Source: Candidatus Bathyarchaeota archaeon
GTDB lineage: Archaea > Thermoproteota > Bathyarchaeia > Bathyarchaeales > Bathycorpusculaceae
Assembly (NCBI GenBank): GCA_963827165.1
Contig: CAWGZR010000010.1
Location: forward strand, 359,516 to 423,515
Reading direction: 5' to 3'
Length of the DNA stretch: 64,000 nucleotides
The notes beneath the pieces were generated by a model that saw nothing but the letters and a program-made list of their open reading frames with translations, did not search any database and was not told the origin of the DNA. Of this stretch, positions 33,145 through 63,811 are shown piece after piece; positions within the stretch are counted from its first letter, which is position 1; the number at the start of each line of letters is the position of its first letter. A program made the position numbers and the translations under genes.

Positions 33145-33218
33145 GGGCTGGTAGTTCAGCTGGTATGAACGCTTGACTTGCACTCAAGAGGTCGGGGGTT
33201 CAAATCCCCCCCAGTCCA
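33145..33218 (+). tRNA. tRNA-Ala (UGC)
   Basis: Cloverleaf GGGCTGG/CCAGTCC with G3:U70, anticodon arm CTTGA-CT TGC AC-TCAAG, T-arm GGGGG TTCAAAT CCCCC. Confidence 0.97.
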
Positions 33219-33224
33219 CTTCAA
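33196..33224 (+). repeat. attL core (tRNA-Ala 3' end)
   Basis: gggttcaaatcccccccagtccacttcaa, identical to 47935-47963. Confidence 0.95.
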
Positions 33225-33275
33225 CATCGCCAACAACAAACCCCAGACTACTATAATATTTTTGATAAAGGTCGA

Positions 33276-34505
33276 TTACTTTCGTATTCTGAAGAGTTTG
33301 TTTTGGCCGAAATCGCAGACGTACTCGAAACCTGCCTCGATTAGTTTGCAGGCTTCTTCTTCTGAATGGGCAACTGTAGCTGTGAAGTCATCGTCTTTGA
33401 AGCTTATGAGTTGCGTGTAAAGCATGGTGTTGTTGAGGGATTTGTGGCCGAGGATTTCTTTGACGTGAAGGATATCTCTGGTTTTGCGGTATTCCATCGT
33501 TGCCTTCCAGTGACGGAAAGTGTGGAAGGTTATTTGTTTTATTCTTGAGTTTTTTAGTTTAGACGCTATGCGTTTGCGCTGTTGCTCAAAATTGTGTCTC
33601 ATCAGATCTGCGTTTACGCTGAAGACTGTTGAGGTTTCTTTTGGCATTTCGGCGAGCATATCTACAAGTTTTATTGATAGCGGCAGAATTCTTGGGTTGC
33701 TTCCTTTTTCAGGTGTTATTCTTACTGAACGTTGTTCTATGTCTATGTCTGTCCATTTTAGCAGTTCGCAAGCTTCGCCGCATCGCATGCCAGTTTCTTT
33801 AAGTAATTGGAGGAATGTGGCTATTCTTTTGCTGCAGCCAGCTATGAGTTGGTCTATTTCCATTTCTGTTGGGATGAAGGGTAGTTTTCTGACTCGTCTG
33901 CAGATTGGTGGAGTCCAAGTTTTTCCTTGCATTTTTAGTAGGCTATCGTAGGCGTCAACTGCATTTACTTTTCTGCTTGCGCTCCATTGTTGTTTTGAGA
34001 TGATTTCTTTTATTGAGTCTTCGTTGCTAAAGTCTGCTCCGAGTTTCATCAGTCGGTTTAACAGTTTTATTCGTCCTTTGATTGTTGCTTGAGAGTATCC
34101 TTGTTTTAGCAGCCAGAAGCTGAATTCAACGATGGCTCCTTTGTCATTTGTTGTTTGGCTTCTCCGCAGAACTTCGGTTGTTTGAGGTTCTGCTTCCAAA
34201 TTTTTCGTCTCCTTGACGCATATTTGGCTGATATTAGCTATACCTTCTGGGCTTTTTAACGACTTCGTATCAAAGATTTCAATTTCTTTCAAGTTGGCGG
34301 CGGCTTGCTCTGCTTTTTCTATGTCGTTTGGGTCTGAGAATCTGTATCCGCAGTCTCTGCAGTACCATCGTTGAATTTCATACCCAAAGCTATTTTGTCG
34401 TTTGGCATCTTTCCAAACTCTTTTTGATTTACACTGTGGGCATAGGGGGCTTATGCTCACGGAGATAGTGCAAGGAGGGCAAGAGAGCAGAATTTGATTT
34501 TCCAA
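33276..34505 (-). CDS. Tyrosine integrase with N-terminal zinc ribbon
   Basis: Catalytic R (TGMR), K (PEKG), HTFRH, LGH, TMLY; CPQC...CRDC; start uncertain. Confidence 0.95.
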   Translation of the reverse strand: MENQILLSCPPCTISVSISPLCPQCKSKRVWKDAKRQNSFGYEIQRWYCRDCGYRFSDPNDIEKAEQAAANLKEIEIFDTKSLKSPEGIANISQICVKETKNLEAEPQTTEVLRRSQTTNDKGAIVEFSFWLLKQGYSQATIKGRIKLLNRLMKLGADFSNEDSIKEIISKQQWSASRKVNAVDAYDSLLKMQGKTWTPPICRRVRKLPFIPTEMEIDQLIAGCSKRIATFLQLLKETGMRCGEACELLKWTDIDIEQRSVRITPEKGSNPRILPLSIKLVDMLAEMPKETSTVFSVNADLMRHNFEQQRKRIASKLKNSRIKQITFHTFRHWKATMEYRKTRDILHVKEILGHKSLNNTMLYTQLISFKDDDFTATVAHSEEEACKLIEAGFEYVCDFGQNKLFRIRK

Positions 34506-34506
34506 A

Positions 34507-36165
34507 CTAAGAAGCCTCCGTTTCTCGGCTTTGTAGGTTCTCTAAGACATGGCTTCCGCAGTTAAAGCAGATTTTAGCAGTTGAGAGGTCGTAGAATTCG
34601 ACGTTGTAGAGGATGTCGCGGGGATTGTTTTGGCACATTGGGCAGGTTTGATCGATGGCGCGTTGGTCTAAATCAAGGATGCGGCAGAAAGCAACTTTAT
34701 CGAGAGAAGGCAACTTAGGGAATTGCGGTTTGTACGATTCCGACGATTGCGACGTTTCCGACGAATCCGACGATTGTAGCAAAGAGATAGTTGTAGGTTT
34801 TAATTGGTAGTTTTCAGGCTCGAATCCGAACCGTTCGCATAGTAGCCGCAGTTTGTTTGTATCCCAAGTGAAACCACGTTTTTTACCAACTCTGCACCGT
34901 TCAAATCCTAAAGCCGCTATTTTTGAGGTTAACGTTTTCCCAAATAACTGTTCTTTTTGTGGACGCTCAAAATTAAAGGCGTTTTCTATGTATTCGTTGG
35001 CAACTGCACCGTTTTCTATGTGGGCGCTGGATGCGATTACAGCAAGCAATATTTCTGATTCAATGCTGGTGTTTTCTTCTGTTTTCTGTTGGCTCGAGAC
35101 TGCCTTAGCGTAATCTACAATGATTTTCTTTTCGGCTTCGTCTGCTACTGCACAGAGGGGCATGAAGATTTCTACGACTCGCGCATTTTTTATTGCTCTG
35201 AGTTCTTCTGGAATGTCAAGTATGGCTTTGGTTTTTGCGTCGTATTCGTCGTAATCGTCGAATTCGTCATATTCGTCGTCAAAGGTGGAGTTAACGGTTT
35301 GTTGGTTTTGGATGGTATTGCCAAGTAGAGTTTCAAAACGCCACTGTAGAAGCCTATTTCGTATTGTCTTTGCTGCTTTGTCGTTTAGTACTATGTCGAG
35401 TTGTCGAGTGTTCTTTGCCATGGTTATAATTATGCTTCGGCTTTCGAGTGTGGCTTTGAGTGCTTCTGTGCCGGCTATGCCTTTGAATCCGAAAACGTGG
35501 AAGGATTTTATCTCTTGGTTGTCGCCTTGACATCTTTCGATGATTGCGCTTCTGCGTTTGTATCCTGCGTTTAGGCATGCGATTACATCGACTTTTTCGT
35601 CTTGGTTGTAGACTTCGGCTTCGTCGAGGAATGGTACACAATTGAATTTTTCTATGCTTCTAAAGAGTGCTGGTGCTGTAGCAGAGACGCTTATTTTTCC
35701 TCGACATGTGAGAACTTGGAGTGTTTCGAGTCCTCTGGTTTTTCCTGAGTTTTTGACGCCGACAAAGAAAACGTATGGTGCTGTCCCCCATTTTTCACTT
35801 ATCCATGTTGCGAATACCCAAGCGGTTAGAACTTCGTATAGGCGTTCATCTGGGAGCTCTACACTTCGCCAAATGAATCTTTTGATAAATCGCCAGAGTT
35901 TCTTTTTGTTTATGGGTTGTATTTGGGTTGGTGTACATAGGTTCCAGTTTATTTCGTCTTGTGATATGGGTGTGTATGCGGTGTTTGTTTCTTTTTGGAT
36001 TATTTTTACTGTTTGTCCGTTGTTGAGTAGGAATTGTTCGCCTTCGACTTGTTCAAAGATCAAGCCTTTTTCGGGTAACCATAATCCGGGGGTTTGTATG
36101 TATGTTGTTTTGGTTTCAGCTGTTGCTTTAGCTTCTGCTCGTTTAAGGTCGGCGGCTATTGCCAT
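34507..36165 (-). CDS. P-loop NTPase / putative replicative helicase (DUF3631-associated type) with C-terminal Zn finger
   Basis: Walker A GVKNSGKT, Walker B FLDEAE, LNAGYKR, LESRS; CPMC...CFNC. Confidence 0.7.
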   Translation of the reverse strand: MAIAADLKRAEAKATAETKTTYIQTPGLWLPEKGLIFEQVEGEQFLLNNGQTVKIIQKETNTAYTPISQDEINWNLCTPTQIQPINKKKLWRFIKRFIWRSVELPDERLYEVLTAWVFATWISEKWGTAPYVFFVGVKNSGKTRGLETLQVLTCRGKISVSATAPALFRSIEKFNCVPFLDEAEVYNQDEKVDVIACLNAGYKRRSAIIERCQGDNQEIKSFHVFGFKGIAGTEALKATLESRSIIITMAKNTRQLDIVLNDKAAKTIRNRLLQWRFETLLGNTIQNQQTVNSTFDDEYDEFDDYDEYDAKTKAILDIPEELRAIKNARVVEIFMPLCAVADEAEKKIIVDYAKAVSSQQKTEENTSIESEILLAVIASSAHIENGAVANEYIENAFNFERPQKEQLFGKTLTSKIAALGFERCRVGKKRGFTWDTNKLRLLCERFGFEPENYQLKPTTISLLQSSDSSETSQSSESYKPQFPKLPSLDKVAFCRILDLDQRAIDQTCPMCQNNPRDILYNVEFYDLSTAKICFNCGSHVLENLQSRETEAS

Positions 36166-37205
36166 GTTGGAATCTCCGCTTGATCGGTTACGCCTTGACG
36201 TTGATTAATGACTTGGATTACTTCGTAGATTCCAGATATGCCTTTGAGGTTGGTGATGTTTTTTCGGTTGCTGTATTGGTAATCGACTTTAGCAAGAAAC
36301 TCGGCGCGGTCAAAGTCGCTGGTGGCTGTTCGGTTACATACTTCTGCTATTATGTTGCGGGTTGCTTCATGGGGTATGCCTTTTTTGATGCACATACCAC
36401 AAAAGGATATGACTATTTCGTTGCGATAGCCGTTTATCCAATATTTCATTAGAAACTGGATGGTTTGCTCATTATCTTTCGCGGTCAATAGCTTGGCGGT
36501 TGGGGGGTTGGGAGCAAATGACATCTGCACGTTTGTTTTGGTTTGCATCTTCTCCATTCTGGCGGTGTCGGCTTCGCTGAAGCTTAAGCCATGTTTGTTT
36601 TCGAGTTCTTCAATGCGCAAAGGTTCGAATGTGACTAGGTCGAGCATTCGGCTCCATTTGCCTTCTACTTGGTGTTTTCCAAAGGGTAATTTTACAAAGT
36701 TGCCGTAGGGTCGTTCTGGTGAGAGTTCGTTTTGTTTTGGGAATACTTCGATTTGTTTTGGGTTAAGGTTTGCCATCTCTAATATGCGCAGTCCCAGCCA
36801 GCGTGCTGCTTTTGCCTGTACTGGAATTAGGAATAGTAGCCAAATATGGTATGAGGGGTCAGGGTATCTTGAGGCTTCAAGAATTATGCAGTTAGGCCAT
36901 ATTCTGGGTGTTTCGTTGCCTTCTTTGTCCTTTATCCTCTGCATGAGGATGCTTAGAATTTGTTTAGCCGTTTCCTTGGGGTCGGCGAGTTTTTCTGGGT
37001 CAAGGTCGAGGCAGAGCCATTTAATGAGGTTGTTGGTGTCGAGTTGGTAGCTGCCCACTGTGGTTTTTCCGTCTAAATGCTGCTGTAATATTTGATCGGT
37101 TAAGGGTTCGGATATTTTGCTGTAGCCTTGCTTAAGTTGAATACAATAGCAATCTGTGCGGTTAACAAACAAGGTCTTGAGAATAGCTAAGATGTCAGCA
37201 GTCAT
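36156..37205 (-). CDS. Archaeo-eukaryotic primase (TOTE-type AEP / prim-pol) with C-terminal helical domain
   Basis: 'HLDGKTTVGSY', 'LCLDLD', 'YHIW', 'IEVFPKQ', 'GNFVKLPFGKH'. Confidence 0.85.
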   Translation of the reverse strand: MTADILAILKTLFVNRTDCYCIQLKQGYSKISEPLTDQILQQHLDGKTTVGSYQLDTNNLIKWLCLDLDPEKLADPKETAKQILSILMQRIKDKEGNETPRIWPNCIILEASRYPDPSYHIWLLFLIPVQAKAARWLGLRILEMANLNPKQIEVFPKQNELSPERPYGNFVKLPFGKHQVEGKWSRMLDLVTFEPLRIEELENKHGLSFSEADTARMEKMQTKTNVQMSFAPNPPTAKLLTAKDNEQTIQFLMKYWINGYRNEIVISFCGMCIKKGIPHEATRNIIAEVCNRTATSDFDRAEFLAKVDYQYSNRKNITNLKGISGIYEVIQVINQRQGVTDQAEIPTWQ

Positions 37206-37294
37206 TGAGTAAACCATCCGGTCTGTTTTTGCAATCAATGCATTTTGCAGGCCACGTATTGTTGGCATTGGCATTCGTCCTATTTTTGGATGAT

Positions 37295-37507
37295 TTATTC
37301 GTCTGCTTTCGCCTCTGACTTGACAATTTTTAGGTAGGCAAAGTCGTGGTGTTGATATATTAGACGTGCGTTTGTTCTTTCAAGAATAAAGCTTGTAATG
37401 CGTTCATTCTCTGAAGCGGTTGTTTCATATACATTCCCAAAAAACAGCTTGGTTTCTGCTGGGTTAAGTTTAGGTTTTTGTTCTAAATCGACTGTGGTTC
37501 GATTCAA
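37295..37507 (-). CDS. Small hypothetical element protein
   Basis: 70 aa ORF co-oriented upstream of the primase. Confidence 0.45.
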   Translation of the reverse strand: MNRTTVDLEQKPKLNPAETKLFFGNVYETTASENERITSFILERTNARLIYQHHDFAYLKIVKSEAKADE

Positions 37508-37584
37508 TTCAAATCTCCAGTACTTTCGGTTTTTATTCTGGAGGGCATGGAAAAAAGGGAACTGAAAAATGATGGGAAAGGGAA

Positions 37585-38298
37585 CTATGACTCTTGCAAC
37601 AGAAAAATTTCACGCATAGTAAAAAATGGGCAGACGTTTGTGCATTCTTTGACTTTCCATGCTCTAATAGGGCATATTTTATCGCAGAATCTTTTAAATT
37701 CTTGGCTGGCAAGAAGTGCTTCAAGATGAAGGGCTGTACTGAATTTAGGTTTTGTAACTGTATCTTCCTTGTTGCCTACAATAAGTCGTGTTAATTGCAT
37801 TTGAATTCCTTGTTTTTTAAATTCAAAGTAAACGCCGTACCTACAACCTATTTCACAACAATAGACCCAAATTCCGTTTTCCGTTAAACAATAGATTATT
37901 TTTTCGCTGCTATGTTGGGTATCTGGACAGCGCCACCCTTCAATAGTATTAAATCCTGATTGGGAAGCCCTCTCAATTATTTCTTTGGCTTTGGTTAGAT
38001 ACTCTCTTGTAATCTTTTTTTGAAAGTAAACATCTTTATCATATCTTGTGCCTAATCCGAGTTTGCCAAGTTTAAATAAGTAGATTTGAGCTGCGGGTAT
38101 GTTAACGCAATAACCGTTCTTCTTACCACAAGGATATTTTTCAATAACCCCTTCCTGGCAAAGCCGTTTTAGGGCTGCCCAGAAGGTTTTTCTGTGCATT
38201 CCCGATTTTTCAAGGGCTTTTACGAAGGTGATACCAGAGTTACTTGCTATTACGTCTAAGACTTTTAGTTCATTTTTTAATTTAAGGGTTAATTTCAA
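37585..38298 (-). CDS. Winged-HTH protein with Cys-rich C-terminus
   Basis: 'VLDVIASNSGITF...SGMHRKTFWAALKRLCQEGVIEK'. Confidence 0.6.
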   Translation of the reverse strand: MKLTLKLKNELKVLDVIASNSGITFVKALEKSGMHRKTFWAALKRLCQEGVIEKYPCGKKNGYCVNIPAAQIYLFKLGKLGLGTRYDKDVYFQKKITREYLTKAKEIIERASQSGFNTIEGWRCPDTQHSSEKIIYCLTENGIWVYCCEIGCRYGVYFEFKKQGIQMQLTRLIVGNKEDTVTKPKFSTALHLEALLASQEFKRFCDKICPIRAWKVKECTNVCPFFTMREIFLLQES

Positions 38299-38659
38299 GA
38301 TATTATTCCTTTCTGTATTTCTGCTGCGCGCTAACTACAATTGAGAGCTTATTAGTTAAACAGACCAATAGTTTCTGGGTTTAGAGAGAGGATCAGTTAC
38401 GGCTAGAGAGCTAAATTTAGAAAAAAAGCAAAGACATTCAATGGCAATGAGGTGACTTTGGAATTCAAATTTTACTTGAGCCTAAGCTTTTATCAAGTTT
38501 AGAGTGTAAAATAGAATATTGCGAATTGTTTACTCTATCGTACTTATAATATTGAAACAAAAAGTTCTTGAATTAACAAGATCAATTAGAAGTTAAAAAA
38601 AGGAAGGAGACGTGGAAAACATTGCTCGCATTTGTAGTAAAGCTGCAAGCATCTATCGT

Positions 38660-38848
38660 CTATGAAACTCCTAATGTGCTCGATCCAGCGTTATTATGAG
38701 CCAGCCAAACAGAAAAACCGGTACAGCAAAAGGCAACACCAGAAGCGTAACGGCTAACCTCGGGAAATGACGTTCCAACAAGACCCGCAAGCGCACCAGC
38801 CGCGGCAAGATAAAATCCAACCCTCTGCTTAGTGCAACTAAAAGCCAT
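38660..38848 (-). CDS. Small two-TM membrane protein (holin-like topology)
   Basis: 62 aa, two hydrophobic segments, RBS aggtga. Confidence 0.45.
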   Translation of the reverse strand: MAFSCTKQRVGFYLAAAGALAGLVGTSFPEVSRYASGVAFCCTGFSVWLAHNNAGSSTLGVS

Positions 38849-38914
38849 GAACCATCACCTGCCTTCACATTTCTCTTAAACAAATTAATCCCCAACGGTA
38901 ATTCAGCAATTTCA

Positions 38915-39004
38915 AATTTAACTTATGAAGAACGGTTATGCTAAATGGGTAACCGACTTATAGTAAGTGGGTAACCCAGTTACGGTAAGTCGGAGTAGCT
39001 GAAA
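38915..39004. promoter_or_regulatory. 22-bp tandem operator/iteron-like repeats, copy A
   Basis: agaacgg ttatgctaaatgggtaaccgac ttatagtaagtgggtaacccag ttacggtaagt; homologous to 43757-43824. Confidence 0.6.
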
Positions 39005-39231
39005 ATAAACGATTACCAGTCAAGAAACGTTAACGGGAATTAGTCAAGGAACGAGGTTGTGAAAAAACTATTTTCAATTTCAGAAAAATGATTGTTTTAT
39101 GTGAAAAATAGTTGTATTGTAAAGGGATTTACACAAATACGACTCAACTTCTTCGGAGAAATTTGAGTTTTCACACACTCTCGAACCTTTACGGAAAGCC
39201 TTTTATCGTCCCTATTTTCATAATGCTAAGT

Positions 39232-40469
39232 ATGAACAACACTGACAAGGGTTTCTCAATACTTCTTACAACAATAATGATTTTTTCAATCCTGATAATA
39301 GCACCCCTTGGATCTGCTCAAAGCGGTACAAACGTTGGTGGCATTATAAGCCAAAATGCAACTTGGACACAAGCAAACAGTCCATATACCCTAACAGGAA
39401 ATCTACTTGTTGACAATGGTATCACCTTAACAATCCAGTCAGGGGTAACAGTCAACATTAACTCATATTACATAGAAGTTAACGGAACACTTGTCGCAAT
39501 AGGAACGAGCAACAACATGATACAGTTCAACAACGGAGCCATAACATTCACACAGTTTAGCACACCCTGGAATGCAGAAACCAACACAGGAAGCACTATT
39601 CAATACTCCGTGTTTAACGGAACCTCAACCCAAGAGTTCATTATCGCTCTTTATACCGAGTTATTTTCCAACAATGACGTAAGTTACCCCGTCTATGTTG
39701 CTTCAGGCTCGCCTATAATTTCAAACAATATATTTACCGCTCGAACCTTTTTTGGTGGCCAAGGCGGAGGTACAATTTCCTCGCCTGCAATACAGCTTAC
39801 CTCAGTTGGAATGGGTGAACCTCAGGAAGCAGTTGTGTCTGATAACATAATTTCTGGTAGTTTTGGTACAGCGTCAGTGGAAGTTGAAGGAGGTTACCCT
39901 GTTATCGAAGGAAATCTGATAACTGGAGGCGGGACTGGCATCGGAATAGAGGGCTCGGTTCAAACAGGTGTAACAATTATTAACAACACGATTGCCGATT
40001 GCTCAGACAATGGTATTTATGCATATACTAATGCTTTGGGCGCGACAACAATAAGTTTTAACAACTTGGAATATAACTCTGAATATAACCTTTATTGGCA
40101 GATAACCGGCAATTTGAATGCTTCTTACAACTGGTGGGGAACAACTGATAATCAAGCCATTGGCAATTCAATCTACGATTTTAGCAATGACTTTAGCCTA
40201 GGCACAGTAACTTATGTTCCCTTCTTGACGGCACCTAACGCTCAAGCTCCTGCATTGCCTACTCCTACACCTGTCCCTACAAGTACCACATCTCAAACAA
40301 ACTCTCCTTCTCCAACACCAACGGCAATGTCGACTAGCAGTATTCAACCCTCAACCCCAAGCGTATCACCTAGATATCAGAGTTTCCAGAATTATTGGTT
40401 GTTATAACTCTGTTGATTGCAGTTTTAGTTTCAGTAATAGCAATGATGAGAAAACGAAAAATAAATTGA
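39232..40469 (+). CDS. Secreted right-handed beta-helix protein with PEF-CTERM-like anchor; frameshift near the end
   Basis: Signal peptide, 'WTQANSPY', Asn-ladder repeats, 'NASYNWWG'; shifted frame gives 'SEFPELLVV...MRKRKIN*'. Confidence 0.75.
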
Positions 40470-40880
40470 GACCCCTTTGTCACTGTCGGGCGCATAATCT
40501 CCATAACCCTCCGCAGGACGCCTATTGACAACGCCTAATCTTCAAGCATCCTGCACTACTGTCGTCTTATCAACTTACAAGATTTCGTCTCCAAGTACCA
40601 CCCGTGTTGTCTTCGCGGGTGACGCCAGAAACCCTGATTGGTCACCGAGAAACTCACTTTGTAAATTCTTTAACTTCTCTTTTCATTGATTGTTCTTACA
40701 CGACGGATAAAATCTAAACAAATTGAACAAACATTTAAGTTGTATCTGAAAAATGAAGTAGTTTTGACATTTACTTTACATTTCTGAACATGCGATTTTT
40801 AGGGAAATTTTTTCTGAAGCGATCTATCTTTTGATTTTTGCTTTAGAGATGATATTAATAAAAAAAGGAAGGTTTGCTGC

Positions 40881-41048
40881 TCACTTTGGTGCAGCTTTTG
40901 GATCAGCATTTTCCTTCTTCAGCGACGCGTTTTCATCTATCAAAGTCTTTATGACGACGTTGAGCTGAGTCAGCATGTCATTAATCCGTAGATTTAACAG
41001 ACCAACTTGTTGCGTGATAGGATCGATGTTTGTTTGCCCTTGACTCAT
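40881..41048 (-). CDS. Small coiled-coil protein downstream of the fibre gene
   Basis: 'LNLRINDMLTQLNVVIKTLIDENASLKKEN'. Confidence 0.55.
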   Translation of the reverse strand: MSQGQTNIDPITQQVGLLNLRINDMLTQLNVVIKTLIDENASLKKENADPKAAPK

Positions 41049-41049
41049 T

Positions 41050-44244: not shown

Positions 44245-44255
44245 GGCGAAAATAG

Positions 44256-55228: not shown

Positions 55229-55245
55229 GCTCACTTATCGTGAGC
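55229..55245. promoter_or_regulatory. Palindromic operator GCTCAC-N5-GTGAGC
   Basis: gctcacttatcgtgagc upstream of paralog 2, next to a TATA-like ctaataag; repeated at 58563. Confidence 0.7.
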
Positions 55246-55578
55246 ATAAAAAATGTTAATTATTCTTTTATTTTATCTCCATAAAGACAGTCCGTTTCTT
55301 CGTCCGAGGGTAACCATTTAACTTAATGAAGTCAAAAGCTCGAAAGCCTCTTCGATTGTAGATGCTGTAATCTGAAATACCCTCTCTCTGATATTCATGC
55401 CATTTCAATGGTACTTGTGCCAGCTCTCCGCAATAGAATGCCATTTCTTCATCAATAGTCTATCAGTTGCCTTTCTGACGAAGAATCAAACCCTAAAATC
55501 GCCAAAACTGAAAATAATAGACATCACCAATGCAAATTCCCAAGAAAAATGGAGTGACAACATGTTGGGAGCGCGTTA

Positions 55579-55682
55579 GGGTTTGCTGAGGCTCTGGAAA
55601 CCAAGGATGAAATTCTTTAGGAGAAAAAGAAAATGCAACCTCTAATCGTTTATATTGGTGGTTATCCAGAGCCTTTTCAGCC
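55579..55682 (-). repeat. Bulged-hairpin repeat copy 4
   Basis: gggtttgctgaggctctgg...ccagagccttttcagcc. Confidence 0.85.
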
Positions 55683-55755
55683 ATTTCTCTTTCTACTGAG
55701 CTCATTTTTTATAAATTAAAAAAAGGGGAAAGAAATTTTGTTAAGCATTTTTAGT

Positions 55756-58506
55756 TTATGGGTGTTTTCTTGTAACGAGCAATGCTAGGACAGCACCAAT
55801 GATGACTATGACTACGATAATTGCGACGAGCCCATATTCGAGTGTGCTGTTTGATGCTAAGCCGCTAAGCGGTGTTGTGGTCGGTGCTTGCGTTGGTGCC
55901 GAGGCGCTGGCATAGAAAGCTGTTGAAGCGGAAGAGCCATAGTACGATTGTGTACCTGCAAACGTAGCATAGAGGGTAAAGCTACCGGTTATGTCAGGTT
56001 TCCATGTAAATGAGTAGTCGCCTAAACTGTTTGTTGTCGTTGAGCCGATTGATCGGTAGTTGTTGTTGGAGTCCAACACGTAGAAGGTTACTAGGACACC
56101 TGTTACGTTGCTTGGCATTGGCTGCTGCTCATAAACTGCCTCCATGAACTGCGTCATGCTTGCGTCAGAAACACATGGCAAGCCATGGGGGAAATTAGCT
56201 GCAACCGCTTCCTGCTTCGAGCCTGCGGAGATATCCATAACCGATCCAGTGATCGTTATCGGGGTAGCAGTTGTTACGCCAACGCTGGGTGCATTCACCG
56301 TTGTTTCGCTTGGTCCCATGCCGTAGGCATATATTTGGTTGTCATATGCGCTTAAAGACAAAAGTACTCCGTCAGAAATAGCTGATCCGCCATCGACGTC
56401 GAAATTCAATATGCTCCAGACTGGTTGGCCGTTGGTAAGGTTAACAGCGATCAGGTCAGCGCCGCGGAACAATGGTGGACTGTATTCATGTCCTTCACCG
56501 AGGAAGAGTATTCCATCAGCGATGGCTCCAGGGTTTCCGAATTGCCAGATTGGCCAAACTCCATATGGAGTGTCCGATCCTGCGGGTCCTGAAATTGTGT
56601 TAGTATCAGTTTGCCAAATTATGGATCCTGTACTCATGTTGATTGCATAGATATCTCCGCCAAAACTGCTCAGATACATCATGCCGTTGACGACTTGTCC
56701 GTAGTAGCTACCAATGCTGTTGTAGGCATCGGGGTTAGGTAGCGTAAAAGGTCCCCAGAGTTGTTTGCCCGTTATAATGCTGTATCCTGTGTATGCAGCC
56801 GTGTCTTGATTGATTTCTACGAAGATGCCGTTTGAAGTCTGTGAGAAGTCAACTCGGGTATATGGTGTTTCTGTCCTGTTAACTATCCACAGTTGTTGCC
56901 CTGTACTTTGACTGTAGCCTGCTTCTATGATAAATCCTGCGTTGTAGCTTGAACCGCCTGCACTTGCGATGGAGCTCAAAAATAATACGCCACTGTTAGC
57001 TGAGGCGCCGCCGGTTGTATAGGTCCCGCTGTTTAGTGAAAGAGTCGCGCTGGAAGGCAAAGCTGCAACTGAAGATAGAGGCAGAGGAACGCCATTGATG
57101 TTTGTTGCTAATGGTTGTCCCCACATTACTCCGAGAGGGAAGGATATTTGTCCGTTTTGTGTTGGTCTCCACATCCACGCTGCAGGACCATTAGTTCCGT
57201 CAACGATGCATTGTGTTGAGTTCCAGCATTCTAACAAAGCGCCGCCAGAAGGATTAGTGACAGGTTCGCCTTGAATCATTTGTGTACCTACTGTACTGTT
57301 GACAAAGTACCCGACTAAGTTTCCGCCGTTATCTTCAATTAGTGTATTCATTCCAGTTCCGTTGACAACGCTTAGAATGTATTGTCCCGTCACGGCGTCA
57401 AACATGTTCCACGTTGTTGTGCCAGCTTGAGCGACTATTCCAACTGGCGTCCCTGTGCTCCAGAGGTATGCTGTTGCTCCATATTGGTTCGGAGTTGTGT
57501 AGTCTAGTGTTTGGCCGCATCGTAGCGAGGTCACTATGCCGGCTGATGTTAAGGCGCTTTGGGCTGGAGAACCGCCTCCGAGGTTAGCTGAATTGTCAGT
57601 CCAGATTGTTTGACCGGTTTGCAAATCTACCGCAAGCCAGCCTGTTGGGTTATTGATGCTTCCAGTATACTGTTCGAAGTAGAGGATGCCTTGGATTATT
57701 ATCGGTTGGAACATTCTCTCGTACTGCCTGGTTGAGTAGTAATTGCTTGTATCTGTTCCACCGAATTCTCCGCCGATTTGACCTCCGAACGATTCAGGTT
57801 TGGTCCATAAAAGGTGAGCTGTCGTTGGTGCAGTCGTGTAAGGATTGTAGTTTCCTGTTGCATTGTACATCCCAGTGGTAGCGCTAAAGAGAGTACCCAA
57901 TCCGAGCCAGTTGCCACTAATGCTGTACCAAAGGTCATTGACCGATTCTATTGGGCGTGTCCAGTAGGTTGCGGGAAGGGGAGCTTGCGAAGCTGAAGGA
58001 GTCGCCTCTTGTTGCACTACTAGAGTTGCTACGTTGCTGGTAGCTGGTTCATAGTAATCGCCGATGTATGGTTTTGTTGCGGCAGAAAAGCCTGCGGGTG
58101 GGGGATTAGCACCAGCTAGTGTTTGTCCTGCATAGAACATTTGGAAAGTATAATTGCCAAGTTCAGTGGGAGTGAATTCGGTATGTGTTCCGCCGGTATC
58201 GTCGGATGTGAAGGGTCCCAACGTCTTAGTCGTTTTGTCTGGCAAGGTAACTTTGACTGTCATGCCTGTCCATCTGTCACCGTAAATTGTCCCTGCTGTT
58301 GGTGGGGCTTGACCAATCCAGAAGCCAACGTTAACAGATTGACCAATACCTGCGGGATTAGGTGCAACGTTGCAAAAAGCGTACTGCGGAATTTGCCATG
58401 CGGGTGTATGTGCATTGGCTGTAGACAGAACCGTAGATGGAATTACAATAGATAACATTAGAAACAGTGCCATCATTGAAAAAACTTTAATTTTTGAATT
58501 CGCCAT
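55756..58506 (-). CDS. Membrane-anchored PQQ-type beta-propeller surface protein, paralog 3
   Basis: 916 aa; same architecture, TM + RKHP. Confidence 0.9.
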   Translation of the reverse strand: MANSKIKVFSMMALFLMLSIVIPSTVLSTANAHTPAWQIPQYAFCNVAPNPAGIGQSVNVGFWIGQAPPTAGTIYGDRWTGMTVKVTLPDKTTKTLGPFTSDDTGGTHTEFTPTELGNYTFQMFYAGQTLAGANPPPAGFSAATKPYIGDYYEPATSNVATLVVQQEATPSASQAPLPATYWTRPIESVNDLWYSISGNWLGLGTLFSATTGMYNATGNYNPYTTAPTTAHLLWTKPESFGGQIGGEFGGTDTSNYYSTRQYERMFQPIIIQGILYFEQYTGSINNPTGWLAVDLQTGQTIWTDNSANLGGGSPAQSALTSAGIVTSLRCGQTLDYTTPNQYGATAYLWSTGTPVGIVAQAGTTTWNMFDAVTGQYILSVVNGTGMNTLIEDNGGNLVGYFVNSTVGTQMIQGEPVTNPSGGALLECWNSTQCIVDGTNGPAAWMWRPTQNGQISFPLGVMWGQPLATNINGVPLPLSSVAALPSSATLSLNSGTYTTGGASANSGVLFLSSIASAGGSSYNAGFIIEAGYSQSTGQQLWIVNRTETPYTRVDFSQTSNGIFVEINQDTAAYTGYSIITGKQLWGPFTLPNPDAYNSIGSYYGQVVNGMMYLSSFGGDIYAINMSTGSIIWQTDTNTISGPAGSDTPYGVWPIWQFGNPGAIADGILFLGEGHEYSPPLFRGADLIAVNLTNGQPVWSILNFDVDGGSAISDGVLLSLSAYDNQIYAYGMGPSETTVNAPSVGVTTATPITITGSVMDISAGSKQEAVAANFPHGLPCVSDASMTQFMEAVYEQQPMPSNVTGVLVTFYVLDSNNNYRSIGSTTTNSLGDYSFTWKPDITGSFTLYATFAGTQSYYGSSASTAFYASASAPTQAPTTTPLSGLASNSTLEYGLVAIIVVIVIIGAVLALLVTRKHP

Positions 58507-58562
58507 TTTTATTTCTCCTTAATTGCAATATCATCGATTGATGTGGTCCGCTAATAAGACTC

Positions 58563-58579
58563 GCTCACTTATCGTGAGT
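58563..58579. promoter_or_regulatory. Palindromic operator CTCAC-N5-GTGAG
   Basis: gctcacttatcgtgagt between paralog 3 and the divergent membrane protein/wHTH pair. Confidence 0.7.
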
Positions 58580-58681
58580 GCAAAAAAGTGTTATGCTTTC
58601 TTTTGCAGTTACGTCGAAGCTACTTAATTTTGGACTAATATTGAAAAAACAAATAAGATAGAATGTGCAAGATTAGCCCAC

Positions 58682-59368
58682 ATGTTTGCTACCAGCATGT
58701 ATCCTGTAGAGCGGATGATAGTAGAGCTTGTTGCGACAATTCTTTGCCTTATCCTTGTCAGATTCATGATAAAGCCGTATAAGCTTACTAGGGAAGGAGC
58801 TTTTCTGGGTCTGCCACTCGGATTTGCTTTTCTGGGAATATCGTACGCTCTGGCAGCCATATCATATTCCCCACTGGATTTTCCTAAAGAATTATTGTGG
58901 CTTCCACTTCTAACAAGATCATTCGCTTTTGTATTTCTTGCAATCACATACTTCTTTTCAAATAAGAAATCAAAAAATGGCTATCTGCTGGGAGAGCTAA
59001 CAATCAGTCTGTTAGTTATTGTTCTCGCCATTTTACTTCTAATTGCATTTGTTGCTCCAGAATTTGCTTTCAATGGGTACTCGAACGCAAACGTATACTT
59101 GAGATTTGTTAACTTAGCATGCCTCTCCTACATTGCCATCTATGCCCTCCGAAGTCACGTGAAGAATCCCGATCCATCAACGATTTGGATTCCTTTCGGC
59201 TTTATTTTTCTCGCCATAAGCCAGTATTCGTTGTTCTTTTGGTATATTGACTCAAGTTTTTCGGCGTTTATAGGATCCTTGATAACTCGTTTTGTAGGTT
59301 TAGCCATCTTTCTTTTTGTCGCATACCGAACTTTCTACGGTTCAAATGAAAAAAAGGGGACAAAATGA
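58682..59368 (+). CDS. Seven-TM membrane protein (possible sensor)
   Basis: About seven hydrophobic helices; ATGA overlap with the wHTH gene. Confidence 0.75.
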   Translation: MFATSMYPVERMIVELVATILCLILVRFMIKPYKLTREGAFLGLPLGFAFLGISYALAAISYSPLDFPKELLWLPLLTRSFAFVFLAITYFFSNKKSKNGYLLGELTISLLVIVLAILLLIAFVAPEFAFNGYSNANVYLRFVNLACLSYIAIYALRSHVKNPDPSTIWIPFGFIFLAISQYSLFFWYIDSSFSAFIGSLITRFVGLAIFLFVAYRTFYGSNEKKGTK

Positions 59369-59643
59369 AGAAAATTCCTCGCAGAGACAAGCTGAAGATA
59401 TACGGAGACCTTTTGTCCGTGCTGAGGAGTGAAAGTAACGAAAGGAAGAAAGTTGTCTTAACGCATGTTCAGGTGCAAATAAATGTGCCTTTTGATCGAC
59501 TTAAGAATTACATAACTGAACTCAAAGAACTTGGCCTGATAGAAGGTGAGATATCTCTTGAACTTACTGAAAAAGGCAGACAATACCTTAAGGAATACGA
59601 AAAAATCCTTGAGTTTATGAAACGCATGGGCCTAACTTACTAA
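59365..59643 (+). CDS. Small archaeal winged-HTH regulator
   Basis: 'RRDKLKIYGDLL...LTHV....NVPFDRLKNYITEL...GLI....LTEKGRQYL'. Confidence 0.85.
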   Translation: MKKIPRRDKLKIYGDLLSVLRSESNERKKVVLTHVQVQINVPFDRLKNYITELKELGLIEGEISLELTEKGRQYLKEYEKILEFMKRMGLTY

Positions 59644-59727
59644 ATGCAGAAAAGCGGACGCTCTAAATAAACAGAAAGTGAAAAGAACACTGCCAAAAAT
59701 AGTGGTTTATGAAAAATGGGATTTGCA

Positions 59728-59776
59728 GGTGACATCTCCATTTTCGCTTGGATTCAAATCCCCCCCCAGTCCACTT
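59728..59776 (+). repeat. attR-3: ggtgacatctcca + 9 nt + tRNA-Ala 3' copy
   Basis: ggattcaaatccccccccagtccactt (one substitution, one extra C). Confidence 0.9.
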
Positions 59777-60126
59777 GGTTTTCGCAAAAGAAGCTTGTTT
59801 TAAACTCGGTTTGGTATTATCGTTTTCTCGCAATCTTACTAAAATCAATAAAACGCACGCTTAAGCAACTTTTAAGAAATTAGCTGCGGAAAAAAGAAGC
59901 TGGGTGGGAGATGTTAATACAAGATTACGCAAAAAAGCTTATGTTATAGCTTCTGTGCTCACCTGTGTGCTTAAGAGCGGGGAATCTTTTTGGTTTGAAA
60001 TTATTTTTGGTCGGGGTTTTTCATAGTTTTCATAGAATCGATTCTTAAAAAAGGCATCCCTATCGAATATAATAATAACTTAAGAAAACAAAAAAAGAAA
60101 AAGGGTTTTTGGTGTTTGTTTTTTGT

Positions 60127-63100
60127 TTAAGGCCGTTTTCTTGTTACGAGCAATGCGAGGACTGCACCGATTACGATTATGATTATGGCGATTGCAACGA
60201 TACCGTATTCGAGGGTGGTGTTTGATGCTAAGCCTGTAAGCGGTGTTGCTGCGGGTGCTCCCGTTGGTGCTGGAGTGCTGGCGAAGAAAGCTGTTGTGGA
60301 GGATGATGGCCAGTAAGCGTTTGTTCCTGCAAATGTTGCGGTTACTGTGAAGTTACCTGATATGGTGGGTGTCCATGTTAAGCTGTAGAAGCCGTCTGGG
60401 TTAGTTACGGCTGTGCCTATGTTGTAACAGTTGTTGTTGGAATCAGTAACGGCGATAGTAACTTGAACACCGGTGAAGTTGGTTGGTTCTGGCTGCTGTT
60501 GGTAAACGTAGCCCATCCATGCAGTCATGCTCGCATCTGATGAGCATGGAACGCCGTTTGGAAAGTCAGCTGCCTGTTGGCTTTGTGTTGTTCCCGCGGA
60601 AATATCCATTACTGTGCCTGTTATCGTTACTGGTGTAGCTGTTGTAACTCCAATGTCAGGTGATGTGACTGTAGTTTTGCTGGGTCCTCTGCCTACACTG
60701 TAGATTTGGTTGTTGTAGCCGTTCATGAAGGTGGCGAAGCCGTCTCCTACAACGTATTCGGAACCTGGAAGATTCCATTCGCTTGGGTAGTCAGAGAGTT
60801 TCCAAATCAGCTGCCCAGTTGTCGCATTGATGGCGAAGGTTACTGCGCCTTTATAGATTGGGTTTGGTACTGTGTGCTCGTTGGTTGCTAGGTAAATCAC
60901 TCCGTTTCCGACAGCCTGGATCTGGGTTGGGTAGTCGCCGTAAAAGACGTTTAAGCCGCCGTATGTGCTGTTGTCTGATCCTGGCGCTCCGTTCCCGTAT
61001 GTCCATAGCAGTTGTCCGGTCGTATCGCTGTAGCAGTAGCAGATTCCACCGAATGAGCTGTCATAGAGGTTTCCGTATGCAACGACGCCTGGTAATTGGA
61101 CGGTCCCTGGGTAGCCATAGTAGTCCCAAGCGCCTTGAGAAGGTGTTGGACCCCATATTTGATTGCCGCTCGAAAGACTGTAACCGACGAATTGCATTGT
61201 TTCCTGGAGGCTGAGCACAAAGACTCCTGTTTGGAAGTCTACTGGTTCCTGTACCAAGCTTTCATTTCCTGCCGGTGGATTGTATGTTTTGCTCCAAAGT
61301 ATAGTGCCGATGCCTCCTCTAGAGGAGTTTAGGTTTACAGCGAAGTATGTGAATGGAAGCTGTGGGTAGCCTTTGTTGGTTGCGGCAAAGCCTTGAGGTA
61401 GAGAACCCCATCTGCAAAGCATCATGTTGCCATATTGAAGTGCCACAATCGACACAGGATTTGCTCCCGCAGGCGGTTGTACTAGTGCTCCGGTAACAGG
61501 GTTCACCGTCGCAGGTGGTGGTGCCATAGTGTTTAGCCAGGGGATCGAAACGTTCCAGTCGTAGGTGGTTAATGAATCTTGGTTGATGGTATAAATGGGC
61601 GTTGTTGTTCCAGGTAAGTTAGCGGTGTCATGGATAGGAATGTTTGCGTTGACAGTTATAACTGAATTATACGGTACTGTTGCTGTGAGACCGTTTGGAG
61701 CGGTTCCAGTTGAAATGCCTGTATCAGGTGGAGGAAGACTTCCGCTGCCAGCTGAACTGACGACGGCACCTCCAATTAGGACTCCGTTTGACGCGTTTAC
61801 TACCGCTGGAGACAGGCTTCCGCCGCCTGTGTATGGGTTGATGTCGTATTGCCACAGTTTGGACATGTTCCATTCAGCCAAATACCATTGTGGATTTGCT
61901 GCGGTTCCATCGTTTGCGATAATGAGTCTCAGTGGTTCACCGCTTGGACCCATAATGTTTGGGCTTGCAACGGTGTTTGCGAAAGTTACTGTTGTTGTGC
62001 TGACTGGTATCACGAATGAGGTGCTTGAAGGAACGCCTGTCACGTTAAAGAGCGAAAGGCCTGTGTACGCATCATAGAGTTGCCAGTTACCGTTTACTGG
62101 ATTGGTGGCGACTAAGATTGGCGGGAAAACTCCGTGTTGATCAGGATCCCACAGATTGTAGAGATAAACGAAGGATAGCGGAGGAATGGCGGTTGATGAC
62201 CAGAGTTGTTGCCCTGTCATTAAGTTAACGCAGACTGTCGGTCCACTGGCTCCACCTGAGAAAGAGACCGGTTCGGTGTAGAAGAGGTATCCGTCGAGTA
62301 TTATTGGGTTGACGAATCGTGGTTGATAGGAAGAACCTTCCCAGTATTGAACTCCTTCTGGACTGTTTGGATCTTCACCGCCAGTGGTGAACGAGTTTCC
62401 ACCAGCAACGCCACCGAATTGCAGTTGGCTTGTCCACATGATATGCGAAGTTAGGGGTCCTATGGCGTCTGAATGGTATAATGTCGCAAAAGTTGTTCCG
62501 CCGTATCCTTGAGGTGGTGCCAGTCCACTACCCAGCCAATTTGATGTTAACGTGTACCAGTTAGTGTTTTCACCATATACTGGGCTTAGCCAGTAAGCGG
62601 TTGGAAGCGGTGAACTACCTATGGGGGCGGCGATCGGTGAGGATTGTACTGTAAGGGTTGTTCTTGTGCTGCTAGGCAGGTAAGTGTCGTTAATTAATAT
62701 TGAGCCAGAGTAACCATCACCGTTCGCACCATAGACTTGTCCCGGATAAGTGAATATCAATGTGTATGTTCCGGTTTGAGTTGGAGTAAATGCGGTTTCC
62801 TGATTTGATGTCGTATCTTTAATGACTGGGAATATTGTTGTTGTCGGCGAACCACTGGGTGGTACTATAGTTAGATTGTAATTGATGAATCTATACGTGT
62901 TAGACAGAAGTGCTGCGCTGGCTGTTGCTCCGTTGGTTCCTACTGCTGCAGTGGTTCCACCTGCGGCACCATAAACTTCGTCAAGCCACATGTAAACTTG
63001 TATTGTTTGCCCTACGCCAATAGGGTTAGGCGACGCAACAATGTAAGCGTATGTCGGAATCTGCCAGGGAGGAGAATGCGCGTTAGCACTGGGTATTAAT

Positions 63101-63177
63101 ATCGTAGAAGCTGCCATTGAAAACATTAAAAATGCTGCAATCAAAATAGTCATAGATTTGCTTTTCAGCTTTTTCAT
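60127..63177 (-). CDS. Membrane-anchored PQQ-type beta-propeller surface protein, paralog 4
   Basis: About 1016 aa from ATG 63177 (RBS ggag); same architecture, TM + RKRP. Confidence 0.9.
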   Translation of the reverse strand: MKKLKSKSMTILIAAFLMFSMAASTILIPSANAHSPPWQIPTYAYIVASPNPIGVGQTIQVYMWLDEVYGAAGGTTAAVGTNGATASAALLSNTYRFINYNLTIVPPSGSPTTTIFPVIKDTTSNQETAFTPTQTGTYTLIFTYPGQVYGANGDGYSGSILINDTYLPSSTRTTLTVQSSPIAAPIGSSPLPTAYWLSPVYGENTNWYTLTSNWLGSGLAPPQGYGGTTFATLYHSDAIGPLTSHIMWTSQLQFGGVAGGNSFTTGGEDPNSPEGVQYWEGSSYQPRFVNPIILDGYLFYTEPVSFSGGASGPTVCVNLMTGQQLWSSTAIPPLSFVYLYNLWDPDQHGVFPPILVATNPVNGNWQLYDAYTGLSLFNVTGVPSSTSFVIPVSTTTVTFANTVASPNIMGPSGEPLRLIIANDGTAANPQWYLAEWNMSKLWQYDINPYTGGGSLSPAVVNASNGVLIGGAVVSSAGSGSLPPPDTGISTGTAPNGLTATVPYNSVITVNANIPIHDTANLPGTTTPIYTINQDSLTTYDWNVSIPWLNTMAPPPATVNPVTGALVQPPAGANPVSIVALQYGNMMLCRWGSLPQGFAATNKGYPQLPFTYFAVNLNSSRGGIGTILWSKTYNPPAGNESLVQEPVDFQTGVFVLSLQETMQFVGYSLSSGNQIWGPTPSQGAWDYYGYPGTVQLPGVVAYGNLYDSSFGGICYCYSDTTGQLLWTYGNGAPGSDNSTYGGLNVFYGDYPTQIQAVGNGVIYLATNEHTVPNPIYKGAVTFAINATTGQLIWKLSDYPSEWNLPGSEYVVGDGFATFMNGYNNQIYSVGRGPSKTTVTSPDIGVTTATPVTITGTVMDISAGTTQSQQAADFPNGVPCSSDASMTAWMGYVYQQQPEPTNFTGVQVTIAVTDSNNNCYNIGTAVTNPDGFYSLTWTPTISGNFTVTATFAGTNAYWPSSSTTAFFASTPAPTGAPAATPLTGLASNTTLEYGIVAIAIIIIVIGAVLALLVTRKRP

Positions 63178-63238
63178 TTTTCTTTTTTCTCCATTTCTTG
63201 TTTTCTTTGGGTTAGGAAAAAATAGCTCCGTCACTACA

Positions 63239-63256
63239 ACTCACATAAGAGTGAGT
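63239..63256. promoter_or_regulatory. Operator variant ACTCAC-N6-GTGAGT
   Basis: actcacataagagtgagt upstream of paralog 4. Confidence 0.55.
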
Positions 63257-63766
63257 GTACAAAAAAAAATGGCTAAAACTCCCTTTTCCTAACGGCTATT
63301 AAATAATATTTTCCAAGCTAAAATAGCTTACGATAAGTTATCTGTATGCATGTGTGCTTGCCGACCGAGGAATAGACTACGGACATGATTGAAAGATTGA
63401 GTGACAGATAATCCGAGCGACAAAGTCAGTTGGAAAGGAGAGAGAGGAGGCTGCGTGTGAGCGCGCTTTCTCTTTTTCTTTATTTCATCTTGAGAAGAAG
63501 CAGAGAAGACGCCTCTTCTCCACGTAGCGCTCTTTGTATTCAAGTCGTATAATTAATTTGCCTAAAGCTTTTAGTTAAGAATAAAGCGATTAAGCGCCAT
63601 TCTCATTTGAAAGAATAACAGATGAATGAAAAGCAATTCTACTATTTCAAAAAATGACGTTTAACCAGACAAAACCGCTGAAGGAAGAAAATGGAGAATG
63701 TGAGAGTTAAAGCGAGAACCCTTGCTTCGCCTTCTTAAAACAAAAAGAAAAAGAGGGGATTTTGCG

Positions 63767-63811
63767 GGTGATATCTCCACTTTCTCATGGGTTCATATCC
63801 CCCAGTCCACT
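63767..63811 (+). repeat. attR-4: ggtgatatctcca + 9 nt + tRNA-Ala 3' copy
   Basis: gggttcatatcccccagtccact (one substitution, shorter C run). Confidence 0.85.

Follow-up and report, generated by a model that had tools for sequence, protein, structure and literature searches.

An integrase-bearing element and an array of integrase-less segments with secreted-propeller cargo downstream of a tRNA-Ala gene in a Bathyarchaeia genome

In the present study, a stretch of 64,000 nucleotides (nt) from a Candidatus Bathyarchaeota archaeon (the window, C10:359516-423515) was analysed for an array of segments lying downstream of a tRNA-Ala gene. The source genome (G000) is a metagenome-assembled genome (MAG) of 14 contigs with a contamination of 3.9%, and the end of the window coincides with the end of contig C10. 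Herein, C numbers denote contigs of the source genome, G numbers genomes of the genus, L numbers integrase loci and other compared loci, and X1 to X3 runs from soil samples. A single tRNA, tRNA-Ala(TGC), was called in the window by ARAGORN, in agreement with the Rfam tRNA model (70.6 bits), and over 30000-64000 no other RNA family was matched by Rfam. This gene is followed by an intact 14.7-kb element encoding an integrase and a primase, named E1 (33220-47963), and then by three integrase-less segments (cassettes 2 to 4), each closed by a 13-nt motif (the 13-mer), exactly 9 nt and a copy of the tRNA-Ala 3' end. This anatomy is defined by the following anchor, element and attachment (att) sites.

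33145-33219, plus strand: tRNA-Ala(TGC), the anchor, whose 3' part (33196-33224) serves as the attL core
33224-33232, plus strand: P' half-site ACATCGCCA, immediately adjoining the core and similar to the right half of the E1 palindrome GGCGATATCGCCA
33220-47963: E1, 14.7 kb, bounded by a 29-bp direct repeat; genes called with Pfam and PHROGs
33276-34505, minus strand: tyrosine integrase of E1, 409 aa, intact (Phage_integrase 2e-24, residues 213-366; N-terminal match to DUF7838; PHROG integrase)
47896-47963, plus strand: att2, the attR of E1; E1-type P arm, palindrome GGCGATATCGCCA at 47913-47925, 9 nt, intact core at 47935-47963; block match by nhmmer
52015-52061, plus strand: att3; type-B P arm, 13-mer at 52033-52045, 9 nt, GGGTTCA only
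59710-59775, plus strand: att4; type-B P arm, 13-mer at 59728-59740, 9 nt, core GGATTCAAATCCCCCCCCAGTCCAC
63750-63811, plus strand: att5; type-B P arm, 13-mer at 63767-63779, 9 nt, core GGGTTCATATCCCCCAGTCCAC
63745-64000, plus strand: terminal stretch of C10, 256 nt, matching C5:962578-962323 at 99.6%

The 13-mer GGYGAYATCKCCA was observed on the plus strand at 47913, 52033, 59728 and 63767, as reported by a first-pass annotation of this DNA, and at each position the sequence reads on through exactly 9 nt into GG(G/A)TTCA of the tRNA T-arm. Five matches were counted against 0.30 expected, a number reached by 0 of 100 shuffles; the four sites yield five matches because a perfect palindrome at 47912/47913 was scored on both strands. 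The core of att2 is identical at 29 of 29 positions to 33196-33224 and is an exact direct repeat of the tRNA 3' end. In att3, the core beyond GGGTTCA is replaced by ~130 nt of other sequence, and this block together with its odd flank has a homologue at C5:958559-958421 (77% identity over 116 aligned nt). The core of att4 shows one substitution and one extra C, and that of att5 an A>T change and two fewer C.

Conservation of the arm reaches ~20 nt upstream of the 13-mer, where a run of A is followed by GGGGATTTTGCG, and the 13-mer is part of an arm of ~45 nt conserved in a Bathyarchaeia integrase family, whichever tRNA is targeted. The arm of E1 is a sister subtype of type B, with GGCGATATCGCCA in a GCTGCGGAGA context. 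The half-site that the annotation had noted after attL is present and recurs after the tRNA in relatives: TTCAACATCGCCAAC was observed at this position in the integrase-bearing elements L035, L036, L039, L040, L058, L045 and L085. The type-B arm of att3 to att5 also closes integrase-bearing elements with cores of other tRNAs (L096, L113 and L070); in L096 this core matches the tRNA beside the element's own integrase, and in L085 the arm and core directly abut a P' arm and an integrase. Since it ends integrase-bearing elements, the type-B arm is the attP arm of the family and att3 to att5 are attR-type junctions. The window repeats are thus genuine junctions of a tRNA-integrating element family, as the annotation had taken them to be.

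E1 itself can be described as a self-contained, tRNA-integrating tyrosine-recombinase element, to judge from the intact integrase gene beside attL and the exact tRNA 3' repeat at its far end. The integrase stop codon lies 52 nt from the attL core, and elements whose integrase gene stays intact on integration are labelled 'pNOB8-type'. Relatives of the integrase were confirmed by tblastn in 406 cases, and 80 loci were kept, the titles of which name Bathyarchaeia or Bathyarchaeota MAGs (77), an 'uncultured archaeon' (2) or a 'Crenarchaeota archaeon' (1); the MAGs come mostly from peat, soil and hot-spring samples. At 70 of the relatives' loci the integrase stop lies ~50-60 nt from the 3' end of a tRNA, which varies by locus. 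Within the source genome, E1-related copies are found at a tRNA-Leu(TAG) (C5:314726-333145) and on C12 and C13, and the remaining integrase copies of the family are all fragmented. The right end of E1 is identical in contigs of two other samples, which would fit a recent spread.

Several side observations concern these sites. At the relatives' integrase loci (L035-L114), the P' arm contains a second, partial copy of the acceptor 3' strand ~15-25 nt past the tRNA end (for example ...CCCGGTCCAC...N...CCCGGTCC); it is present for all tRNA targets and may be a second integrase binding site. A weak att-block-like sequence, AAAGAGGGGATTTTGCGAGTGAAATCAC...TTCAAATCTC, lies inside E1 at 44723-44770 (C10:404238-404285; nhmmer E=3.5), and similar weak copies are found at C11:1313 and C11:5145. 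An A/G allele located in the acceptor-stem portion of the cores was considered as an integration clock and was dropped because integration itself swaps the allele: the tRNA of G013 has G and its attR has A.

The segments behind E1 and their open reading frames (ORFs) are as follows.

47964-52014: cassette 2; a 50-nt degenerate P'-like linker, then a conserved 3' flank from 48014
48201-48284, 48310-48819, 48680-49264 and 49152-50816, minus strand: propeller gene of cassette 2, in three or four ORF pieces
51011-51346, plus strand: TrmB regulator of cassette 2 (Pfam)
51309-51947, plus strand: 212-aa ORF of cassette 2
52188-59653: cassette 3; 3' flank at 52194-52381
52382-55153 and 55756-58506, minus strand: the two propeller genes of cassette 3 (Pfam)
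58682-59368, plus strand: 228-aa membrane protein of cassette 3
59365-59643, plus strand: winged helix-turn-helix (wHTH) gene of cassette 3, HTH_45 (Pfam)
59776-63749: cassette 4; single propeller gene at 60127-63234, minus strand, 1035 aa (Pfam PQQ_2 and Big_3_5)

Four paralogous propeller genes are held by these segments, together with the TrmB gene in cassette 2 and the HTH_45 and membrane-protein genes in cassette 3, and all three segments are flanked distally by a type-B P arm and a tRNA-Ala core. The encoded propeller proteins combine a signal peptide, a PQQ_2-type beta-propeller (PQQ, pyrroloquinoline quinone), an immunoglobulin (Ig)-like domain and a C-terminal membrane anchor ending in ...RK(H/K/R)P. 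No recombinase or transfer gene was found in 47964-63811 by Pfam on the 10 longest non-nested of 28 ORFs of at least 80 aa, and neither tblastn with the E1 integrase nor an integrase 3'-end profile gave a match over the cassette DNA itself. Immediately after att2 to att5, integrase remnants were absent at E<=10 with the profile, built from 70 integrase 3' ends, and at 1e-6 by tblastn. All three approaches agree with the annotation in that only the first segment encodes an integrase. The linkers after att2, att4 and att5 have no ACATCG P' half-site, a feature that integrase-associated junctions mostly retain; those after att2 and att5 resemble a P' arm by eye, at a level below significance. Between the two propellers of cassette 3 no att block was found.

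The propeller family extends well beyond the array, with 27 loci in the source genome. Five of these have an att block on the opposite strand at most 1.2 kb past their 3' end (random mean 0.07; 0 of 2000 trials reach five), and the other 22 have none within 1.2 kb. Divergent pairs of TrmB and propeller genes recur elsewhere in the source genome.

The attachment signature is widespread in the genus. A search for the core pattern, which the annotation had proposed, returned the exact type-B form in 29 of 81 genomes (62 sites), with 0 sites for a reversed control. The content found after the orthologous tRNA-Ala differs in every species examined, and the identical gene order across relatives that the annotation had named as evidence against its proposal was not seen.

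G016: propeller, att, propeller, att, integrase stump
G003: three att blocks, no propeller
G013: E1-like element followed by a core, an integrase stump, two att blocks and a second integrase stump, which is fused to a propeller
G010: integrase stump, then a propeller and two TrmB genes
G078: cassette-3-like unit closed by an att block, then further propellers
G012, G005 and G047: one propeller each
G014 and G002: integrase
G008: nothing recognisable

Integrase-free arrays also occur elsewhere, with 8 blocks over 31 kb on G060:C17 and 6 over 9 kb on G041:C11, and further ones on G056:C8 and G038:C10, and comparable arrays were found in single-contig and other genomes of the genus. Among 47 att or tRNA cores scored in 28 stretches, two are followed by a long integrase, seven by an integrase 3' stump of 50-135 nt and 38 by neither, counts that are not an unbiased sample since the stretches were picked for tRNA-Ala or pattern matches; two more tRNA sites with full integrases (G013 and G014) fell below the threshold in this scoring. 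The 3' end of a propeller gene lies within 1.5 kb after 14 of the 47 cores, and two of the integrase stumps (G013 att12539 and G010) are fused to propeller genes.

Individual cassettes can also be followed between species. Cassette 3 is kept as a block, at 82-86% nt identity, in G047 and G091 and is rearranged in G078, G052 and G056. In G056, a unit of propeller, 228-aa protein and HTH_45 genes lies between two att blocks with a well preserved P' arm. In G047, the nearest species, with a housekeeping flank 83-84% identical to that of the window, cassette 3 (G047:C1:786900-795100; 86-88% identity) is bordered on one side by a class II intron-bearing tRNA (51 bits with the Rfam tRNA model; the anticodon looks like CGA) and on the other by a 37-nt repeat of the 3' end of that tRNA with 3 mismatches; neither a family P arm nor an integrase was found at this site. 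The single propeller behind the tRNA-Ala of G047 is a different one. At the same tRNA, the source genome carries a 4.7-kb island of MarR and ABC-transporter genes (C5:452240-457140, L134). Cassettes 3 and 4 of G091 have no adjacent att block, and the cassette 4 propeller has relatives in G091, at 91% aa identity and away from any att block, and in G016, at 64% and within an att-bounded segment.

Three smaller observations were made in these comparisons. The MarR and ABC-transporter island has a P'-like sequence after the tRNA, and its distal repeat is absent. In the cassette-3-like unit of G078 (G078:C12:392375-400000, L126), the propellers stand in the reverse order relative to window 52382-58506 (916-like, then 923-like), while the pair of 228-aa and HTH_45 genes and the closing att block hold their positions. 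After several att blocks in relatives, fragments of other tRNAs are found.

Turnover was also observed between strains, for which assembled contigs of runs X1 to X3 were mapped over 44001-64000. One segment, cassette 2, is present or absent in natural populations: in contigs of X2 (837 nt, with 0 and 1 differences on the two sides) and X3, the sequence passes from 47971 to 52194, where the conserved flank starts, and the cassette is skipped. Between these breakpoints stand 36 other letters, found nowhere in the source genome, which are a diverged homologue of the window linker after att2; the junction has no att3 right flank and is not the predicted att2 x att3 product. In X1, the contig crossing att2, compared by difference counts, then departs from the window by 9 substitutions and 17 gap positions, a pattern that would be expected for the cassette-2-less form. 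Depths in X1 are ~7 for this divergent contig, 3-5 across cassette 2 and 12-13 across cassettes 3 and 4, which suggests, contig depth being unreliable for such use, that both forms of the array coexist.

The array probably continues past the window end, as the annotation had supposed. An X1 contig of 2731 nt crosses 63639-64000 without a difference and extends 2369 nt further, and the terminal 256 nt of C10 match a second array near the end of C5, which comprises six blocks at 948-963 kb and a decayed tRNA-Ala fragment. The match between C10 and C5 begins where the att block does, at its left edge, and to the left of this point their flanks are unrelated. The decayed fragment (64 nt, C5:967449-967511; L006 16890-16952, minus strand) runs from the D-loop to the 3' end at 87.5% identity to the window tRNA-Ala, without an ARAGORN call, and ~60 nt further lies a second tRNA 3'-end fragment, GGTTCGAATC...GGCGCCA.

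Other candidate rearrangements in the mapped contigs were rejected or left unused. Loose contig ends at 48015 and 52193, considered as alternative neighbours of cassettes 2 and 3, carry letters that equal C5:872462-872491 and C4:62352-62381 exactly, and were therefore attributed to cross-mapping and not to variants. Of 14 other contig joints, 13 have a shorter side of 21-42 letters in regions conserved among paralogues and were not used, nor was the 14th, an opposite-strand joint at 51788/51894 with a side of 103 in one X1 contig.

A stretch of ~190 nt past the stop codon is conserved, as judged by eye on a shortened alignment, in ~10 of 26 aligned propeller paralogues. It is found in the window at 48014-48200, 52194-52381 and 55570-55755, and elsewhere at C4:62383, C4:67220, C5:872470, C5:957700, C5:966390, C12:162737 and C13:7723. 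It starts after a T-rich, terminator-like run, ends at GCCTCAGCAAACCC and holds a short ORF beginning MGAEK(V/A)L, and its outer edge is the exact point at which homology is lost among paralogues and among strain variants.

The array is real and is a product of the E1 integrase family. Herein, we propose that it arose by tandem accretion of integrase-less islands, accompanied by integrase loss and by shuffling through homologous recombination, a reading to which we assign a probability of roughly 0.5. In this reading, one Bathyarchaeia tyrosine-integrase family would insert into the 3' end of tRNA-Ala, an integration hot-spot, and every insertion would rebuild the tRNA and leave a junction composed of the P arm of the element and a copy of the tRNA 3' end. 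As to the order of events, E1, the sole complete element, would be the most recent arrival. The three segments behind it are integrase-less islands of the same family, with a degenerate P'-like linker on the tRNA-proximal side and a conserved P arm and core on the distal side. Between these ends only cargo is present, in the form of divergent regulator and secreted-propeller modules. The islands would derive from integrase-bearing elements after loss of the integrase, along the archaeal 'gene capture' route, and would by now be mostly fixed and decaying, and their reshuffling would proceed mainly by homologous recombination between att blocks and the ~190-nt propeller 3' flanks.

Integrase loss is seen directly in the relatives, because 7 of the 47 cores carry integrase 3' stumps, two of them fused to propellers; decayed full-size elements had been named by the annotation as an outcome that would tell against its cassette proposal. 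The two breakpoints that are well resolved coincide with edges of shared repeats and not with cores, as homologous recombination would leave them. Captured and fixed islands are favoured because the cores of att3 to att5 are lost or mutated and the linkers after att2, att4 and att5 have no P' half-site, because the arm subtype of E1 differs from that of the cassettes, and because the junction that skips cassette 2 corresponds neither to the att2 x att3 product nor to a simple recombinant made from window sequences.

Several observations weigh against accretion followed by decay. First, the integrase-less segments are strikingly clean: the 3' flank or end of a propeller starts tens to a few hundred nt past the core or tRNA end, with no integrase remnant, at att2 and att3 of the window, in the variant contig, twice in G016 and once each in G047 and G078, and independent random deletions would not be expected to produce this pattern time after time. 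Second, integrase-free arrays spaced at 0.6-1.3 kb exist (G041). Third, all integrase stumps are short and similar in length, as if they had been retained as a part of the site. Fourth, blocks that differ in their 9-nt spacers and in the adjacent non-coding DNA share a conserved 13-mer. Finally, cassette 3 of G047, standing at another tRNA with the repeat of that tRNA, looks like a site-specific insertion of an integrase-less unit.

These points lend themselves to an alternative that we regard as possible, if doubtful: that the segments are active, non-autonomous units of the cis-mobilisable element (CIME) type with a P'-cargo-P layout, which circularise and are inserted, excised or carried by an integrase in trans, e.g. 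that of E1, and which would spread regulator and propeller modules between tRNA sites and strains. Such units would account for the repetition of the clean layout across species and tRNAs (as in G056), the relocation of cassette 3 in G047, the presence or absence of cassette 2 among soil samples and the conservation of the 13-mer and its spacing, beside variable spacers, at all 62 sites. The excess of propeller loci near att blocks, the short-spaced arrays and the uniform stumps would also agree with active units. However, the sole polymorphic junction is not an att2 x att3 product, the att3 core is gone, those of att4 and att5 are mutated and the window linkers have no P' half-site. Moreover, the copy in G047 stands without the family P arm, and a 'cognate attP' is therefore not constant, the P arm of E1 belongs to a different subtype, and the other family integrases of the source genome are all broken. 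The annotation had viewed the segments as integrase-free cassettes that are inserted, excised or shuffled in trans; the variation in content and order and the polymorphism of cassette 2 bear out a turnover, but no evidence of att x att movement was found in the assembled contigs mapped over 44001-64000.

A wider version of this idea, which we consider rather unlikely, is that Bathyarchaeia carry a class of non-autonomous integrative cassettes, compact integrase-free P'-cargo-P units that are inserted at tRNA 3' ends by the integrases of resident elements and are able to swap their short attP module and so change their tRNA target, and that the stacking of such cassettes is a main route by which the secreted propellers and their regulators are gained, lost and dispersed between strains.

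Local segmental duplication of an att remnant together with a propeller gene, by which the att copies would have multiplied passively, is very improbable. It would explain that every att block lies a few hundred nt past the 3' end of a minus-strand propeller gene and that the window propellers are paralogous at 65-72% nt identity. However, in BLAST comparisons the best partners of every window propeller are found on other contigs and not in the neighbouring units: for cassette 2 they lie on C13, C5 and C4 (73-74%), for prop916 at C5:110591 (73%) and for prop1035 at C5:954633-957550. The unit contents also differ (TrmB and 212 aa; two propellers, 228 aa and HTH_45; one propeller), the two propellers of cassette 3 have no att block between them, and the same P arm occurs with the cores of other tRNAs, so that the duplication which the annotation had listed as a possible refutation finds no support. 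Hardly credible is an assembly or strain-mixture artefact: the MAG consists of 14 contigs and has a contamination of 3.9%, C10 stops inside a repeat shared with C5 and the X1 depth is uneven over 44-52 kb, but independent contigs confirm 52263-60727 across att4 (X1, 8463 nt) and 63639-64000 across the start of att5, and comparable arrays are found in other genomes, including single-contig ones.

Related arrangements have been described in other organisms. CIMEs, known from site-specific accretion with ICESt1/ICESt3 in Streptococcus, are att-flanked segments without recombination genes that share their site, in tandem, with an autonomous element, and their mobilisation by the integrase of the neighbour has been demonstrated experimentally. 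The window units are likewise att-flanked, recombinase-free and in tandem with E1, whereas several of their att sites look degraded and their mobilisation is putative. Among archaea, integrated elements were reportedly described by She et al. in 2001 and 2004, as cited in a review. Sections of a review of archaeal elements (PMC8371274) cover tyrosine integrases that target tRNA genes, 'gene capture', loss of the integrase after integration and tandem integration, as well as module exchange between tandem elements by homologous recombination.

The closest match is given by the ssrA islands of Dehalococcoides, which, in the portions of the report that concern them (McMurdie et al. 2011, PMC3146451), are described as lying in tandem downstream of one small-RNA gene, bounded by direct repeats of its 3' end, with a conserved short motif just upstream of the repeat that is unmatched in the RNA gene. 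According to the same portions of PMC3146451, about half of these islands (15) have no integration module and carry rdhA, a large paralogous family, and the idea of cis-mobilisable elements is raised by the authors. RNA 3' repeats, an upstream motif, missing integration modules and cargo from a paralogous family are shared with the window array. The Dehalococcoides islands are bacterial, anchored at a transfer-messenger RNA (tmRNA) gene and associated with a serine recombinase module, whereas the window array is archaeal, anchored at tRNA-Ala and associated with a tyrosine integrase with a Zn-ribbon-like N-terminus, and carries secreted PQQ-like propellers and wHTH regulators. Stacked arrays of integrase-less islands are thus already known in bacteria, and the present one is archaeal with secreted propeller cargo; in the open-access literature, no account was found of long integrase-less arrays with a conserved P arm, nor of such arrays in Bathyarchaeia.

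The term 'integron-like', used in the annotation, is not retained. As in integrons, an integrase lies beside an array of short gene units delimited by recombination sites; unlike integrons, the locus has no attI/Pc platform, and the integrase belongs to a self-contained 14.7-kb element with a primase, a wHTH protein, a ParB-like protein and its own att sites. In addition, the place of attC is taken by tRNA 3' copies with a double-strand palindromic arm. Integron cassettes are mostly promoterless single ORFs that end in attC, whereas the present units have regulators of their own and divergent promoter regions, some of them holding two to four genes.

Bathyarchaeia are abundant archaea, for the most part uncultured, whose accessory genome is poorly understood. 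The attachment-site signature (a run of A, GGGGATTTTGCG, GGTGAYATCTCCA, 9 nt and the tRNA T-arm) is usable to map integrated DNA in their genomes, and the locus ties a part of the expansion of the secreted propeller family, together with strain-level turnover, to tRNA-anchored islands. If integrase-less units were mobilised in trans, archaea would have a cassette-like route of gene shuffling comparable to the bacterial CIMEs; if a non-autonomous cassette class exists, it would be an archaeal, tRNA-anchored counterpart of a cassette platform.

With respect to the function of the cargo, a sequence search with the 923-aa propeller against solved structures gave no match at E<=0.01, and the description 'PQQ-dependent' therefore rests on weak Pfam PQQ_2 matches only. 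No propeller relatives were confirmed in viral contigs (IMG/VR). A study of Bathy-6 MAGs (PMC11697101) reports, in the sections dealing with these proteins, large expansions of Sec-secreted PQQ-domain proteins with Ig-like domains, for which lateral transfer plus duplication and an extracellular PQQ-type redox role on lignin are proposed there; the variation of the cell surface suggested by the annotation is a putative role. At 25 of the 27 propeller loci of the source genome, the product ends in the same anchor, in which a hydrophobic helix precedes a terminal R(K/R)(H/K/R)P, an arrangement that would suit a dedicated sorting or anchoring signal.

Besides its integrase, E1 encodes a 552-aa protein, a 431-aa protein and the following genes.

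36156-37274, minus strand: archaeo-eukaryotic primase (AEP)
37585-38298, minus strand: wHTH protein
41050-43245, minus strand: 731-aa protein with a tail-fibre/endosialidase-chaperone C-terminus
44940-45929, minus strand: phrog_11143-like gene, in three ORFs (138, 113 and 105 aa) that are successive parts of one family (357 positions)
45995-46558, minus strand: ParB-like protein

The phrog_11143-like ORFs are one gene split by frame changes, which could be due to decay or to an assembly error. The cassette 2 propeller and the other integrase copies are likewise in pieces, and within 48417-48812 a single gap distinguishes an X1 contig from the window.

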